Source: an uncultured Gemmataceae bacterium
GTDB taxonomy: Bacteria; Planctomycetota; Planctomycetia; Gemmatales; Gemmataceae
DNA: 64,000 bases
Direction of reading: 5' to 3'
Assembly (NCBI GenBank): GCA_963750165.1
Contig: CAVVPN010000011.1
Span: 800,001 to 864,000, forward strand
The translations under genes were made by a program, and so were the position numbers. Under the pieces are notes generated by a model. It saw nothing but the letters and a program-made list of their open reading frames with translations, had not been told where the DNA came from and ran no database searches. This document shows, piece after piece, positions 8,544 through 13,772 of the stretch; positions within the stretch are counted from its first letter, which is position 1; each line of letters starts with the position of its first letter.

Positions 8544-8972
8544 GGGTCCTTCTCTCCGATGCAAGAGGACGGGTACCGGGGCAACGGGTTTACGGGCAAC
8601 GGGGCGACTGCGGACGACGTGAGGGGCACTGCAGGGAATCCCGCGATTAGCCCCGGACACCCACGGATACAAATTGGCGAAATAGATGTGAGAGAACGTA
8701 GCCCGCCTGGGTCGGGTGGTCAAGGAAAAAATGAAAATCCGTGGTCAGAATGCAAGCCGAAATGACTCGGGGTCTCCGAACTCGCAATCCTCAACGGGGA
8801 AATCCAGCTTCTCAGGTCTTGTCCCGCAACGTGTAGGCCGCGGCCAATAAGCGCGGCCGCTTCCCGAGAGTTCGGCTCCACAATGTCTATCGAATCTCCG
8901 AGGGGAACTGACAGTCGGGTCGTCGCCGTCCCCAGGGAAGCGCAGCATTGGCGAAAAGCGATGCCGAACGTT

Positions 8973-9046
8973 GCCGGGTCGCCCTGGGCGGTTACCCACC
9001 CAGGGCTCCCACAGATCCGGACGTGCGGAATTACCGCATCCGGCTC
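8973..9046 (-). ncRNA. Group II intron catalytic domains V and VI
   Basis: AGC triad in a 34-nt DV; DVI stem GCCCTGGGTGG-GTAA-CCGCCCAGGGC followed by the branch A at 8979. Confidence 0.9.
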
Positions 9047-9060
9047 GTCCGGCCAACGGT

Positions 9061-9886
9061 TCACACGCGCCGGTACACCGAGTGGACCACCCGTGCTGCC
9101 GGCAGCGGATACCGCTCCAGCAGTCCCCACAGGCTCGCCCAGCCGAAGCAGCCTTTCCAGCTACGCCGAGAAAGCCACTTCCGCCAGATTCGCGCCACGA
9201 TTGCTCGCACACGGTCCAACGAGGAGCAGTTCCCCGTCACCCCGTAGTAGACGTCGTGGCCGCGTAGCTTCTGGCTCAGTGTCGCGTGCTGCTCCTGGAT
9301 CGGTCGGTGCCGGTTGCGCCGACACCATTCCCCTATCGCTTTCGCGAACCGGCGGATTCGGCTGGCTGCCGTCCGTTTCTTGACTGCCGCGTTGTTCTTC
9401 CTCGACTTCCCCCAATAATGGGTGAACCCCAGGAAGTCAAACGTCCGCAGTTGGTTGCCCCCCTGCGGTCCCTCTTGTCCTTTCTGCTCCCGGGGCCGCG
9501 CGAACGGCACCAGTCGCGTCTTGTCCGGGTGGATCGACAGCCCGTACTTGCCGAAACGCTTCGGCAGCACCTCCATCACTCGTCGTGCGTCTGACTCATC
9601 GGTGAACCCGATTACGAAGTCGTCGGCGTAACGGATCAGGAAGGTTCGGCCCAAAAGACGTGGCTTAACCACTTCTTCCCACCAGACGTCCAGCACGTAG
9701 TGCAGATAGACGTTGGAAAGCAAAGGAGAGATCACCCCGCCCTGGGGGGAGCCTGTCGAGGGATACGTCACTGCACCCCCCTCCATCACTCCCGCGGAAA
9801 GCCATTTGCCGATCAGTCGTAGCGCTACCCCGTCACGTACCCTTTGCCTGAGCAGTTCCCGCAAGTGGGCATGATCCAGCGTGTCA
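9061..9886 (-). pseudogene. ltrA: Group II intron RT/maturase, C-terminal part (no endonuclease domain)
   Basis: DTLDHAHLRELL, GSPQGGVISPLLSNVYLH, RYADDF, FDFLGF, thumb/X domain. Confidence 0.92.
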
Positions 9887-9887
9887 A

Positions 9888-10226
9888 ACGACCTACCAAC
9901 ATGATGCCCCCTTCGAGCACCCGCCTGAGGAGCCTGAAGAGGTCGAGGTGACCGACCCGACCCACCCGCTGTTCGGGCGGCGTTTCCGTGTCGTGTCCAT
10001 CAGCCATCCGCCGCGACGCCCCGGCCAGGTCACCGTGGCCTACCGGCAGGGGATGCGTCTGCGCATCCCCGTCCTGGCCACTAACCTGGTCCCTGGCACT
10101 GCTGCGTCGCCTCGCAGTAAGCTCACCAGAGTAGCCCTGCTCGATCTCCTCGCTCTGGTGAAGGAGTGCGAAGCCTCATGTCCCGTTCCCCCCGGCGCGT
10201 CTGGTCCGGACTCTCCGATGGCCTGA
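9888..10226 (+). CDS. Small Y4bD/DUF5372-like protein; full-length start only formed in the circular element (internal GTG at 9948)
   Basis: VEVTDPTHPLFGRRF motif; frame open back to the left junction. Confidence 0.7.
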   Translation, partial: TTYQHDAPFEHPPEEPEEVEVTDPTHPLFGRRFRVVSISHPPRRPGQVTVAYRQGMRLRIPVLATNLVPGTAASPRSKLTRVALLDLLALVKECEASCPVPPGASGPDSPMA

Positions 10227-10393
10227 AAAAACAGGTCATTGGCGATCTTCTTTCTGTCTTCAAGGAGGTACTCCATGAGCTTGCCCGAAACCATTCAACC
10301 CACCCACCTGGATCGCCTGGCCGTCGTCTACGTCCGCCAGTCCAGCCCCCACCAGGCCCTTGCCAATCAGGAGAGTCTCAAACTCCAGTATGA
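10178..10393 (+). CDS. Small hypothetical protein of the LSR element, overlapping both neighbours
   Basis: ATG at 10178 after gaaggag; VWSGLSDGLKKQVIGDLLSVFKEVLHE helix. Confidence 0.5.
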   Translation: MSRSPRRVWSGLSDGLKKQVIGDLLSVFKEVLHELARNHSTHPPGSPGRRLRPPVQPPPGPCQSGESQTPV

Positions 10394-12343
10394 TCTGCGC
10401 CACAAGGCCCAGGCTGCCGGCTGGGACCCTGGCCGGATCCGGGTCATCGACACCGAGCTGGGCCGCACCGGCCGCTCCGCCACAGGACGCGCCGGCTTCC
10501 AGGAGCTGGTCACCCTGGTCAACCAGGAGCAGGTCGGCATCATCTTCGCCTACGACGTCACTCGCCTGGCCCGCAACTGCACCGACTGGTATCAGCTCCT
10601 CGACCTGTGCGGCTGGCGGCACTGTCTGGTCGGCGATCAGGACGGCATATACGACTCTACCACTCCCAATGGCAGACTTATCCTGGGACTCAAGGGCTTG
10701 ATCTCCGAACTGGAGCTGCACACCTTGCGGGCCCGCCTGACCGCCGGCCTGCTCAACAAAGCCCAGCGCGGTGAGCTGGCCAAACCGCTACCCATCGGAT
10801 TAATTCGCGACCCGCTGGGGCGGGTGCTCAAGCATCCCGACCAGGAGGTCCAGGGCCGGCTGGACCTGGTCTTCGCCACCTTCCTGCAGCTCCGAGCCGC
10901 CTGCCGGGTGGTCCGCCACTTCAACGGCCATGAGTTGCTGTTGCCGCGGCGAGATCGCTTTGGCGATCTGGTTTGGCGGCAACCGACGGTCCCGGCCATT
11001 CTGTCCATCCTGAAGAACCCCGCCTACGCCGGCGCGTTTGTCTACGGCCGGACCCGGACGGTGCCCAGGGCCGTGCGCCTCACGAGCGGACCCAGAAAAC
11101 GCTGCCGATGGACGAGTGGAAAATCCGCATCCCTGACAAGTATCCGGCCTACATTGATTGGCCGACGTTTGAGACAATCCAGGGTATGATCCGCGACAAC
11201 CACTCTGAGTATGATCGCAACCAGACCCGGGGTGTGCCTCGCCCCGGCAAGGCGCTGCTGCACGGCATCGTCTGCTGTGGCGAGTGTGGCCACCGGATGG
11301 TGGTGCAGTACAAGAAGGGGACCCGCTACCTCTGTAACTATCTGCGTCAGCACTGGCAGGTGCCGGTCTGTCAGAACCTGCCGGCCGACTCCATCGATGA
11401 CTGGGTCGTTGGGACCTTTTTCGATGTGCTTTCTCCGGCGGAACTGGATCTGTACAGCCAGGCCGTGGCGGCGTTACAGCAGGACGATGACCAGGTGCGG
11501 CAGGCACAGCGGCAACAGCTCGAACGGCTCCGCTACCAGGCGCGGCTGGCCGAGCGGCAGTACAACCAGGCCGACTCGGACAACCGGCTGGTGGCCGCCG
11601 AACTGGAGCGGCGCTGGGAGGCGGCACTGCGGGAACTGAAGGACGCGGAAGAGAAGTTCCAGCAGCAGCAACAACAGCCGCGGCTGGCCGAAGCGTTGAC
11701 TGCGGCAGAGAGGGAAGCGTTCCTGCAGGCCGGCAAGAAAATCCCCCAGTTGTGGCAACAGGGCCGGTTGTCGCAGCAGCAGAAGAAGGCGTTCCTGCAC
11801 TGCCTGATCGACAAGGTGGTCGTCCACCGCTCCGCTCCAGATACTATTCAGGTGCGTATTGTTTGGAGAGGTGGCGAGGCGACGGCCAAGGCGCTGACGG
11901 TGACGGTGGGCTCGCTGGCGCGGCGGTCGGGGTCGGCGGAGATGGAAAAGAAGATCCTCGAAATGGTCAAAGAGAACAAGAGCGATGAAGAGATTGCCAC
12001 TCTGTTGACCCGAGAAGGGCATCGTTCGCCGAAGCACGACGCCGTGCTGGTCAGCACGGTGCGAACCATCCGCCTGCGCCACCGCCTGTTCCGCAAGCGT
12101 AGCCAGTCCCACCCGCGCCACATCCCCGGCCACCTGACCATCCCGGAACTTGCGGACCGCCTGCGCCTCAAGCCAGGCTGGCTCTACCACCAGATTCACA
12201 ACGGCACGATCCAGGTCGCGCGCGACGCGGAAACGAACCTCTACCTGTTCCCCGACCACCCCAGTACCATCGCCCGGTTCGAGCAACTCCGGGCTGGCAA
12301 GATCCAGAAGTTGCGTTTTTATGGAGGGTATCAAGATGCGTGA
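10275..12343 (+). CDS. Large serine recombinase (resolvase + recombinase + Zn ribbon + coiled coil + C-terminal HTH); apparent frameshift near 11070
   Basis: RBS aaggagg; YVRQSS catalytic motif, DVTRLARN, ILKNPAYAG, CGECG...C...C; split over ORFs 10239-11189 and 10973-12343. Confidence 0.9.
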
Positions 12344-12346
12344 TCG

Positions 12347-12864
12347 AAGAATTTGCGGATGTCCACTTCCAAGACCCAGCCGCCCCCGTTCTTCATCAAG
12401 TGCTGCCGTAGGTCTTCCAGAGCCTGGTGTGCCGATCGGCCTGGCCGAAACCCGTACGAGCAGGGCTTGAAGTCCTGCTCATAGATCGGTTGCAGTAGCA
12501 GGACGATCGCCCGCTGGAGGACCTTGTCCTCCAGCGTTGGTATCCCGATCGGCCGGGTCTCAGCAGACCCGGGTCCTTTCGCGATATGCACCCGTCGCAC
12601 CGGCGGTGCCCGGTAGGAGCCGGACTTGGCCCGTTCCAGAAGCGAACGCAGATTGGCAGTCAGGTCCGCTTCGTAGTCCGCGGCGGTGATCCCGTCCACA
12701 CCAGAAGCACCATCCCGGCGCGTGCTCCAGTAGGCCACGAGCAACCAGGTGAAGTCGAGGTGGTGGTTCAGGGAAGCGAATCCCATTTGCGGGGCTTGCC
12801 GCGCAAGCTCCGCTATCCGCCGTTGTCGCGTTGACACGGGATCGGCTCCTGGAATAGCCGCCAT
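12347..12864 (-). pseudogene. ltrA: Group II intron RT/maturase, N-terminal part
   Basis: GASGVDG, YRAPPVRRVHIAK, RPIGIPTLEDKVLQRA, SYGFRPGRSAHQAL, WVLEVDIRKFF; RBS ggaggg. Confidence 0.92.
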
Positions 12865-13772
12865 GTTTCCCTCCAGCGGATCGTTGACCAGAGGCCCCCT
12901 TCCCTGTCCAGGCTCCGGGCCGGGGTAGCCCGTTCGCCTGACGTAGCGGTACTATGAGGCCTTCCGACTCCTGCCTGCCCATCGGCCCAAGCTCATTGGG
13001 TTCGCCGAGGACCTACCGCCGTGTGCCAGCGATGAGTTCGCTCCCTTCGCGGCTCGCTGGCAACCGCGGGGCCCGGGCACCTTGAATCGGCTGACCCGCA
13101 CAGCCGAGAGTAACGGCGGGAACAGACAGGCCTCCCAGGTTCCTGGGGAACCCCAAGGTGGCCGCGCCGACTTCTAAAGACCCCGGCGGGACCGCCCCCC
13201 AGGCCAGTACAGGAGAGCAGGCGCGGCCACCACATGCGCGCACGGCAGGGGCTCCCGCGAAGAGACCTAATTTCGGGGCTGAATGGGCCGGCTCGGGACA
13301 CAGGCTGTCTACGCTTCGCCCGCCAGGTCGCCCTGGAGGACGCAAGACTCGCTTCCGGCTGTTGGCCAGACTCTACCGGGTGGGCTCGATGACCCACTGG
13401 GTTCCACCGAAAGGTTTTGAGCTGTTTCCTACATCTCTCCTCCTTCCCCAGGCTTTCCCTGGCGCAGCGCGCTTCGGTCCGCCCCACCGAAGTGAGTTCG
13501 TGTCGAAGCGTTCGACGCGGAGGTCACATCGGCCGCTGGATCGACCAAGCGGGCACAGTCCGTGAGCACCCCGCAGCGCCAGTGCCCGCGGGTAGGCGCC
13601 CGCCACCTTCGTCTTCGGCGTTCGTAACCGAGCGCTGGCGTTGCGGCGCGTCTGCCGACCGTGTCCCGTGTTCATTTTCCCTTCAGCATCGGTCTCAGGC
13701 TTGACCCGCCCGGCAGCCGGCGGTAGCTGTGAAGGCGCCCACCGGGTGACGGGGATTCGGCGTCGCGGCACG

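Follow-up and report, generated by a model that had tools for sequence, protein, structure and literature searches.

The 64,000-nt stretch of DNA analysed here (the window; positions 800,001 to 864,000 of contig CAVVPN010000011.1 in assembly GCA_963750165.1, an uncultured Gemmataceae bacterium) contains a group II intron whose reverse transcriptase (RT) gene is interrupted by a 2,460-bp insert. Positions 9887-12346 of the window are a precise insertion into this RT gene. The evidence as a whole is best explained by a site-specific element of a large serine recombinase (LSR), inserted at a 2-bp TT in the F-F-D motif of the RT, a reading to which we assign a probability of about 0.85. The features concerned are the following.

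About 8971-13466, minus strand: group II intron (the host)
8971..9886, minus strand: intron 3´ segment, comprising the RT C-half at 9886-9061 (begins ..F/DTLDH; YADD, GIIM/X) and domains V/VI at 9048-8973
9887..12346, plus strand: inserted element, 2,460 bp, with the AA crossover (read as TT on the RT strand) occurring at both 9887-9888 and 12347-12348
9889..9914, plus strand: left end, P arm of the element's attachment site (attP), CGACCTACCAACATGATGCCCCC.., an imperfect inverted repeat of the right end
9891..10226, plus strand: body of the DUF5372 gene (PF17342, E 5e-5)
10275..12343, plus strand: LSR gene (Resolvase, Recombinase, Zn_ribbon_recom), frame broken near 11073
12321..12346, plus strand: right end, P´ arm of attP, with GGAGGG and then an ATG at 12336-12338 reading outward over the junction
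12347..13466, minus strand: intron 5´ segment, comprising part of ribozyme domains I-IV at 13388-13170 and the RT N-half (ATG 12864 to 12347)

A precise insertion at a 2-bp core

Both halves of the RT match RVT_1 above the Pfam cut-off. The open reading frame of the N-half (12864-12331) covers RVT_1 positions 6-81 and ends in ..VDIRKFFDHAS and a stop codon, of which the intron-derived part ends in ..VDIRKF plus TT. The C-half stretch at 9900-9061 covers RVT_1 positions 79-204, and the GIIM domain in this half is sub-threshold (E 8e-4, 19.7 bits vs the 23-bit cut-off). On the minus strand, the upstream junction (12360-12339) reads ...GAC ATC CGC AAA TTC TT/CGATCACGC, where the slash marks the junction, or in a wider reading ..AAATTCTT/CGATCACGC.., and the downstream junction (9893-9871) reads ..GGTCGTT/TGACACGCTGGATCAT.. 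TT is the sole sequence common to the two. An earlier note on this DNA had described an RT cut inside DIRKFF/DTLDH and a 447-aa RT with YADD restored by deleting 2460 bp. The junctions place the insert at DIRKF-F/DTLDH, and a script that excised 9887-12346 in silico reproduced the 447-aa open frame, with DIRKFFDTLDH at residue 168 and YADD at 259.

The empty site was observed in other samples. A 2,046-nt contig from sequencing run X1 aligns to 8971-9886 of the window and resumes at 12347-13466. This contig skips exactly 2,460 bp, which proves the precise insertion independently. Two letters are ambiguous at the X1 joint, which, together with the TT at both window junctions, agrees with the 2-bp LSR crossover that the earlier note had proposed. 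The empty intron of X1 is ~97.5% identical to the window intron, with 49 other letter differences and 2 gaps, and the same 2,460-bp skip on the window intron is found in soil run X2. The uninterrupted copy that the earlier note had suggested looking for was thus found as the X1 contig and not in the window's own genome, where the intron has no second copy besides a 188-nt fragment. This fragment (G000:C4:1058693-1058878) is 84% identical to the intron 5´ end, with no other intron part there.

The ribozyme parts of the intron flank the insert. The family group-II-D1D4-6 (RF02005) matches 13388-13170 with 98.1 bits in Rfam, and Intron_gpII (RF00029) matches domains V/VI at 9048-8973 with 36.7 bits (E 1.1e-4). 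The earlier note had called these domains intact; with a score below the gathering score of 40 they are likely, rather than certainly, intact. No tandem repeats were found around the window intron. A search of the sequencing-run index for the window gave no source run (best share of words 0.09), and none of the run contigs aligned to the window spans 11056-11209.

Most close relatives occupy the same position in RT genes

Of the 8,000 candidates scored in the LSR protein search, 4,279 matched at E <= 0.001. Identity is 70-100% in the best 120, and most full-length proteins have 680-689 aa and come from contigs of just 2.1-6 kb. The loci surveyed comprise 59 from species genomes, the best 80 of 238 from metagenomes and more from genomes of the window's family; recorded hosts are Planctomycetota, Bradyrhizobium and other Alphaproteobacteria, Burkholderiales, Acidobacteriota and others. 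Close relatives are the 63 loci with a readable flank and an LSR at least 60% identical to relative P0002. Their flanks were read in the frame set by the window junction, and junction-abutting peptides of at least 30 aa were scanned against Pfam (100 + 66 + 10 peptides).

RT genes hold 43 of the 63 loci, 35 recognised by Pfam RVT_1 and eight, with flanks too short, by the motif only. The insertion point is the same throughout, at about RVT_1 position 79. All 20 N-side flanks with a Pfam match end at RVT_1 76-78; among the 23 C-side flanks with a match, 15 begin at 80-81, seven at 99-100 (their first residues being unaligned) and one (L087) at 146. The LSR is antisense to the RT in every RT locus. 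Many C-side flanks also carry GIIM, HNH or Intron_maturas2, and intron RNA domains (Rfam) adjoin four loci (L078, L007, L148 and L096). The targets are diverse, with 24 distinct B arms and 25 distinct B´ arms, and the target attachment site (attB) is conserved mainly at the codon level, as ..GGA.G.GGACATC....A.TTC [TT] CGACA..ATCGACCA.. Three more distant relatives in whole genomes (L146, L148/L177 and L178) also lie in RT genes at this position. The mapping of homologous insertion sites that the earlier note had proposed thus returned the RT motif as a recurrent site. Its idea of the motif as a landing site is supported by the 43 loci at one Pfam position and by the empty and occupied copies described below.

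Two loci depart from this pattern at one side. The left junction of L087 and L089 is normal (core AA, RT C-part on the minus strand), whereas the core at the right junction is TA and a second RT C-part (DNIDHEVLL or DNINHDFLL) reads away on the plus strand, so that two RT C-parts diverge. Such loci may stem from two insertions that were rearranged with each other, or the contigs may be chimeric. At L080 (904/3369), a joint skipping exactly 2,464 bp occurs in soil runs X2 and X8, with 2 letters ambiguous; its sides are only 28-30 letters long, which makes it weak. In X8 the empty-site joint for L080 stands alongside 100%-identical pieces of the element, giving empty and occupied forms in one sample.

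Empty and occupied copies of one intron

Genome G099, from the same family as the window's genome, carries seven copies of one intron that are 99-100% identical, two of them occupied and five empty. In the occupied copies the element lies at ..DADLKSY/F/DTIPH.., and in the five empty copies ..AAAAGTTAC TT CGACACG.. is intact, as is Y-F-D. Between the occupied copies there are 3 differences in the intron and 5 in the element. Only one indel is informative; it places the two occupied introns with different empty copies. This leans, weakly, towards two independent insertions, but copying of the composite may also account for it. The suggestion in the earlier note that the element might also ride in the intron RNA would give the same picture in G099 as independent insertions.

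Since the recombination would be conservative and the empty sites are exact, excision is expected to restore the RT, so that the switching of RT genes proposed in the earlier note would be reversible. No excision product of the window copy itself was seen; its LSR is frameshifted.

The G099 intron copies adjoin arrays of a ~44-nt repeat spaced 67-70 nt (e.g. L177 6187-6407 and C10:966690-967042). This repeat has >70 matches across G099 in both orientations and may be the homing target of the G099 intron.

Other LSR lineages target other mobile elements

Beyond the RT genes, each of the more distant LSR clades keeps to a fixed position in the gene of another kind of mobile element. One clade, mostly from Bradyrhizobium and with an LSR identity of about 48-50%, has N-side flanks that stop at positions 89-90 of 101 of TnpB_IS66 in 14 loci, and four further loci show the same IS66 TnpB motif in the other orientation. 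In a Planctomycetota clade, TnpB_IS66 position 17 is where the C-side flank starts (3 loci, from Pfam). An rve transposase is interrupted at rve position 20 in another clade, and two further clades lie in a tyrosine recombinase at about Phage_integrase 150 and in an ISAs1-like DDE transposase (DDE_Tnp_1). Single loci were found in IstB (one) and in a Resolvase gene (one). Locus L055 (1523-1990, 4326-4883) is inserted in a serine recombinase gene at DEDGV/YDPAHFNDRL. The family's own LSR carries this target motif (DQDGIYDPATPNGRL), so that the element could perhaps insert into its own relatives.

The LSR tree comprises 70 rows, with five near-duplicates omitted, and is unrooted. Each target other than RT that is represented by at least 2 rows corresponds to a single clade (SH-aLRT 99-100). 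Ten changes, the fewest possible, account for the 11 target labels; 0 of 200 shuffles were that low. RT-targeting rows stand at the base of several clades in this unrooted tree, and the RT may be the ancestral target.

The IS66-type LSR matches 473 plasmids in PLSDB, at 1-7 places in each. In one Bradyrhizobium japonicum plasmid, a truncated IS66 tnpB stands on one side of the element and the IS66 transposase gene on the other, and the annotation reads no more than 'recombinase family protein'. In plasmid CP126024.1 (29233-33748; H23), the IS66-type LSR is broken into four pieces, and the match also spans transposase genes of IS256 and ISRj1; by its sequence, this element has itself been struck by insertion sequences.

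The ends, core and size of the element are conserved

The element ends are conserved across the family. The left end is the core followed by CGACTCAGCAACATGATGCCCC, the right end is ..GGAGGGGTATCAAGATGCGTGATCG followed by the core, and the two are imperfect inverted repeats of one another. The same dinucleotide (AA, AG, AT or TA, depending on the clade) flanks the element in 42 of the 47 loci with both junctions. The element size is 2,452-2,483 bp in 44 of these 47. In L015 and L053 the element is 3,545-3,546 bp, with cores AG/AA; the LSR match is stretched to about 3,053 nt, and ~1.06 kb of extra sequence lies inside the LSR gene.

The element holds the LSR and DUF5372 genes only, without an origin of transfer (oriT), relaxase or other mobilisation genes, which sets it apart from integrative mobilizable elements (IMEs). 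Near-identical relatives occur in several copies, e.g. three in one metagenome-assembled genome (L022/L024/L026). By its short length, own mobility genes, inverted-repeat ends and multi-copy relatives, the element falls within the insertion sequences in the broad sense, with one copy in the window's genome.

Contigs of exactly element length (e.g. L010, 2,481 nt, and L101, 2,456 nt) were considered as circles and rejected, as they start and stop at the element ends like collapsed repeats. In L108 the flanks are mutually reverse-complementary (..GHVTRARISQI on both sides), and this locus is probably a fold-back assembly artefact. Its helix-turn-helix (HTH)-like target motif ..TRARISQI/MNLLxLAPDIQE recurs in L109 and L134.

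The recombinase and the state of the window copy

By its domain set and the 2-bp core, the recombinase in the insert is classed as a large serine recombinase, with a reading frame that is not intact in this copy. The Resolvase domain (PF00239) is matched with E 6e-22 in the window's first frame piece and with E 1.7e-22 in P0002. PF07508 (Recombinase) and PF13408 (Zn_ribbon_recom) lie on the C-terminal side of the catalytic domain, both in the window pieces and in relatives with an intact frame. R-Q-S is invariant at P0002 positions 21-23 across the LSR relatives, and we take it to be the catalytic serine motif. A heptad-like stretch spans ~400-470 of P0002; contacts with DUF5372 predicted at 385-404 and 471-491 would fit an inserted coiled coil. 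About 200 residues past the putative coiled coil (about 480-681 of P0002) match no Pfam family above the cut-off, with weak HTH_17 and winged-HTH matches near 615-648 (E 0.1-0.2). This C-terminal part may be an extra DNA-binding module.

Compared with the DNA of L066 and with six full-length relatives, the window LSR lacks 1 nt near 11073, which splits it over two frames (10239-11189 and 10973-12343). Its usual stop is mutated (TAG to TAT), which adds 7 codons up to the TGA at 12341-12343. The readthrough (12319-12343) overlaps the outward-reading ATG at 12336-12338. The element is single-copy in the window's genome (9.6 Mb, 12 contigs), where the only other LSR match is 34% identical and no other DUF5372 match was found. 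With the LSR frameshifted and no sister copy in the genome, the window copy is probably stranded and immobile now, unless the frameshift is an assembly error.

A DUF5372 gene divided between the two ends

When the right end, core and left end are joined, the right-end ATG is in frame with DUF5372 without a stop in all 36 loci with both ends, including the window. In this set, GGAGG lies 7-9 nt upstream of the ATG. The linker is 59 or 62 nt, with length changes in multiples of 3, and the crossover falls in codons 4-5. No in-frame start lies inside the left end in 21 of 33 distinct sequences; in many elements the first codon of the conserved domain is GTA, GTC or GTT, and an in-frame left-end start is then absent. 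The first in-frame start of DUF5372 in the integrated window copy is a GTG at 9948, and a second in-frame ATG at its right end lies at 12321-12323. Of 13 further loci with hand-set ends, eight show the same in-frame ATG; L140 and L111 were dropped from the count in this set, their hand-set ends having given unlike cores. Because the ribosome-binding site and ATG are at the right end and the body is at the left end, the gene would be whole, and the full protein made, only on an excised circle.

DUF5372 is conserved in all clades with 44-85% LSR identity. Its model is a small four-stranded SH3-like barrel with a helix (predicted local distance difference test, pLDDT, 78). A fold search against the PDB gave no match at E <= 0.001, with weak SH3-like, KOW and Tudor rows only. 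The predicted complex of the LSR and DUF5372 scored 0.66, compared with 0.00 for the best of three controls. The mark for this score is reached by 116 of 157 solved complexes and by 2 of 215 mismatched pairs, and is rough here, as own alignments were used. The complex runs agree on at least 75% of contacts, with a partner pLDDT of 65-66. The predicted interface on the LSR comprises the zinc ribbon (334-363), the feet of the putative coiled coil (385-404 and 471-491) and residues 497-535. The recombination directionality factor (RDF) of phage SPbeta binds its integrase at the second DNA-binding domain (DBD2) and inter-hinge segments (PMC11722253). The predicted DUF5372 site on the LSR thus matches the one used by known directionality factors.

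We tentatively propose, at somewhat less than even odds, that DUF5372 favours or licenses integration; this is made more likely by the fact that a canonical RDF is needed in the integrated state. Alternatively, though this seems somewhat less likely, DUF5372 could be a canonical RDF supplied from the first rare circle, which acts in trans to excise sister copies in a burst and blocks re-integration until diluted. The predicted interface on the zinc-ribbon/coiled-coil hinge, as for the SPbeta RDF, and the conservation of the gene across the clades are consistent with such a factor. Its start and ribosome-binding site are parted from its body upon integration, however, so that the state needing an RDF lacks it and the integrating state has it, and the SH3-like fold has no significant match to solved structures. 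The rest of the probability lies with other roles, neither licensing of integration nor canonical RDF activity.

Alternatives to a site-choosing element

Among the alternatives that concern the insertion itself, the one that survives best, at a low probability, takes the recombinase module as cargo of the intron, with the composite retrohoming by RT/maturase supplied in trans and the LSR not choosing the site. The two occupied copies in G099 share 4,462 bp of intron and element at 99.6%, and re-insertion and composite copying would look alike there. The element, however, lies in at least 24 different RT sequences as well as in IS66, rve, recombinase and other genes, and the target tracks the LSR phylogeny. 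The grouping of the G099 occupied introns with different empty copies also speaks against cargo, weakly, as it concerns one indel. In the window's genome no other GIIM match was found, and hence no second GIIM-bearing gene that could supply maturase. The same test of composite retrohoming was applied to L080, which diverges from its five sister contigs inside the RT flanks.

It is improbable to a slightly greater degree that the RT matches reflect a relaxed, multi-targeting LSR, like the Tn4451 group, combined with a sampling bias towards repeats. The close relatives outside RT genes and the degenerate attB arms could be read in this way, and metagenome contigs that end in repeats are enriched for mobile elements. 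All RT insertions, on the other hand, are at one codon and in one orientation, the other clades are equally exact elsewhere, and the labels cluster on the tree. DUF4368, which together with many unrelated target genes per cluster marks the multi-targeting LSRs and the Tn4451-type (PMC10083194), has no Pfam match in these LSRs at E up to 1.

That the junctions are an assembly chimera of two unrelated repeats, the intron and a recombinase gene, can practically be dismissed: the genome is in 12 contigs, both partners come from repeat families, the source run is absent from the indexed runs and some metagenome contigs of relatives look chimeric (the palindromic L108; L087/L089), but the same architecture, 2-bp repeat and RT position recur in 43 loci of many samples and in long contigs of other genomes, and X1 holds the exact complementary empty site.

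Several observations weigh against the preferred reading of a site-specific LSR element. Twenty of the 63 close relatives lie outside RT genes, including one in a PSD1 gene, three recurrent unidentified sites and members of the other-target clades. The attB DNA is highly variable for a site read by one LSR clade. The cores are unlike in five of the 47 loci (L015, L053, L087, L089 and L143), and many loci are short metagenome contigs that are possibly chimeric across repeats. The window's own LSR is frameshifted and single-copy. As to the excised circle, an IUPAC pattern of attP had 0 matches in viral_contigs, and no back-joints were found in the contigs of runs X1-X4, X6, X8 and X24, which has little weight as contigs drop rare forms. 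The mobility of the family is deduced from occupied versus empty sites and from multi-copy relatives, and the recombination itself is inferred. The role given to DUF5372 is the least secure point: three loci of one clade have the usual ATG out of frame, the frame being open across the junction with other candidate starts; the complex score is the model's own confidence and may lean on solved LSR-RDF structures; and a canonical RDF promotes excision, the opposite of what a factor produced from the circle alone would be placed to do.

Proposed mechanism

In the cut-and-paste scheme that we propose, the LSR would excise the element as a 2.46-kb circle, on which the two inverted-repeat ends are joined to form attP. 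The attB would be conserved RT coding sequence, about ..GAY ATY nnn nnn TTY TT/Y GAY.. Recombination of attP with attB by the LSR would split the RT gene, and excision would restore it exactly. Each LSR lineage would keep its own target, a conserved motif in the coding sequence of another mobile element; disrupting these sites is likely to do the host no harm, and they are likely multi-copy and carried between cells. DUF5372, made in full from the circle and seated on the zinc-ribbon/coiled-coil hinge, would likely set the direction or efficiency of recombination by the state of the element.

Compared with the earlier note, the targets in genes of other mobile elements, the broken LSR of this copy and the small gene split by attP are new. 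The widest form of the proposal is that these are widespread two-gene 'hyperparasite' transposons, whose LSRs have repeatedly been re-aimed at mobile-element enzymes and whose direction is encoded in topology through a partner gene that is whole only on the circle. We put this forward as a possibility with a little less than an even chance.

If true, the family provides a natural series of LSRs (about 50-85% identical) with differing, defined attB sites, from which the re-aiming of serine integrases could be learned. It would also represent a general strategy of DNA parasites, namely landing only in conserved coding motifs of other parasites. Because each insertion disables an RT or transposition gene, the elements would be natural antagonists of group II introns and insertion sequences. 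The partner gene split by attP would be a simple coupling of a directionality or accessory factor to the excised state. The proposal would further account for thousands of genes named 'recombinase family protein', found on metagenome contigs of 2.4-5 kb and on Bradyrhizobium plasmids, which are now unannotated as mobile. These points concern workers on mobile DNA and on integrase engineering.

Comparison with known systems

In a full-text search of CC-licensed PMC and bioRxiv papers, no two-gene LSR element aimed at motifs of intron RT, IS66 TnpB or transposases was found, and the term 'DUF5372' occurred in 0 papers. A large survey of LSR targets reports enrichment in competence genes; its main text is silent on reverse transcriptase and group II introns, and its supplements could hold such targets (PMC10083194). 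LSR transposons with circular intermediates and IMEs in genes belonging to integrative and conjugative elements (ICEs) were already known, whereas the two-gene form, the mobile-element targets and the attP-split partner gene appear to be new.

A close likeness is to Tn4451 and Tn4453 of clostridia, which are LSR transposons (TnpX) with a circular intermediate (inferred for the present family), a 2-bp crossover and a regulatory role at the circle joint. By its title, a paper from 2000 by Lyras and Rood, cited in PMC13023037, reports that the circle forms a promoter for TnpX. Unlike these transposons, the present elements are 2.46 kb long without cargo or a mobilisation gene, target coding motifs of mobile elements, split DUF5372 at attP and lack DUF4368. 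The TnpX-type LSR of Tn4451 carries out both excision and integration alone (PMC5704250).

Serine-recombinase IMEs sit in conserved genes of Tn5252-type ICEs, such as Maff2-like, SNF2 and traG (PMC5704250). As in the present family, a serine recombinase there inserts a mobile element into another one, at a set position within a conserved gene, and disrupts that gene. These IMEs are larger, are found in Firmicutes, carry replication and mobilisation genes and hijack conjugation. In contrast, members of the present family carry just two genes, come from Planctomycetota, Pseudomonadota, Acidobacteriota and others, and hit introns and insertion sequences rather than conjugative elements.

The LSR shares with the phage integrases of SPbeta, phiC31 and Bxb1 the Resolvase, Recombinase and zinc-ribbon domains, probably with an inserted coiled coil, the inverted half-sites of attP and the 2-bp core. 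It differs in having no phage, ~200 extra C-terminal residues, a partner gene assembled on the circle only and a family of coding sequences as attB. As in phage LSR-RDF pairs, a small partner is predicted on DBD2 and the coiled-coil hinge (PMC11722253). IS607 is a minimal element moved by a small serine transposase with inverted domain order and minimal target specificity (PMC4058570); the present elements are likewise minimal, insertion-sequence-like and driven by a serine recombinase, but theirs is large and highly site-specific.

IStrons are a case of one selfish element inside another (PMC4227781). IStrons and twintrons are fusions or introns in introns that splice at the RNA level, whereas here a DNA element cuts the protein gene of the intron and leaves the ribozyme parts untouched.

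An element gene divided at attP has a further parallel. In archaeal viruses of the SSV1 type, attP lies within an element gene, and integration partitions the tyrosine integrase gene. The present elements resemble them in the split of an element gene at attP, and differ in that the split gene is that of a small LSR partner, from which only the first four codons and the ribosome-binding site are parted.

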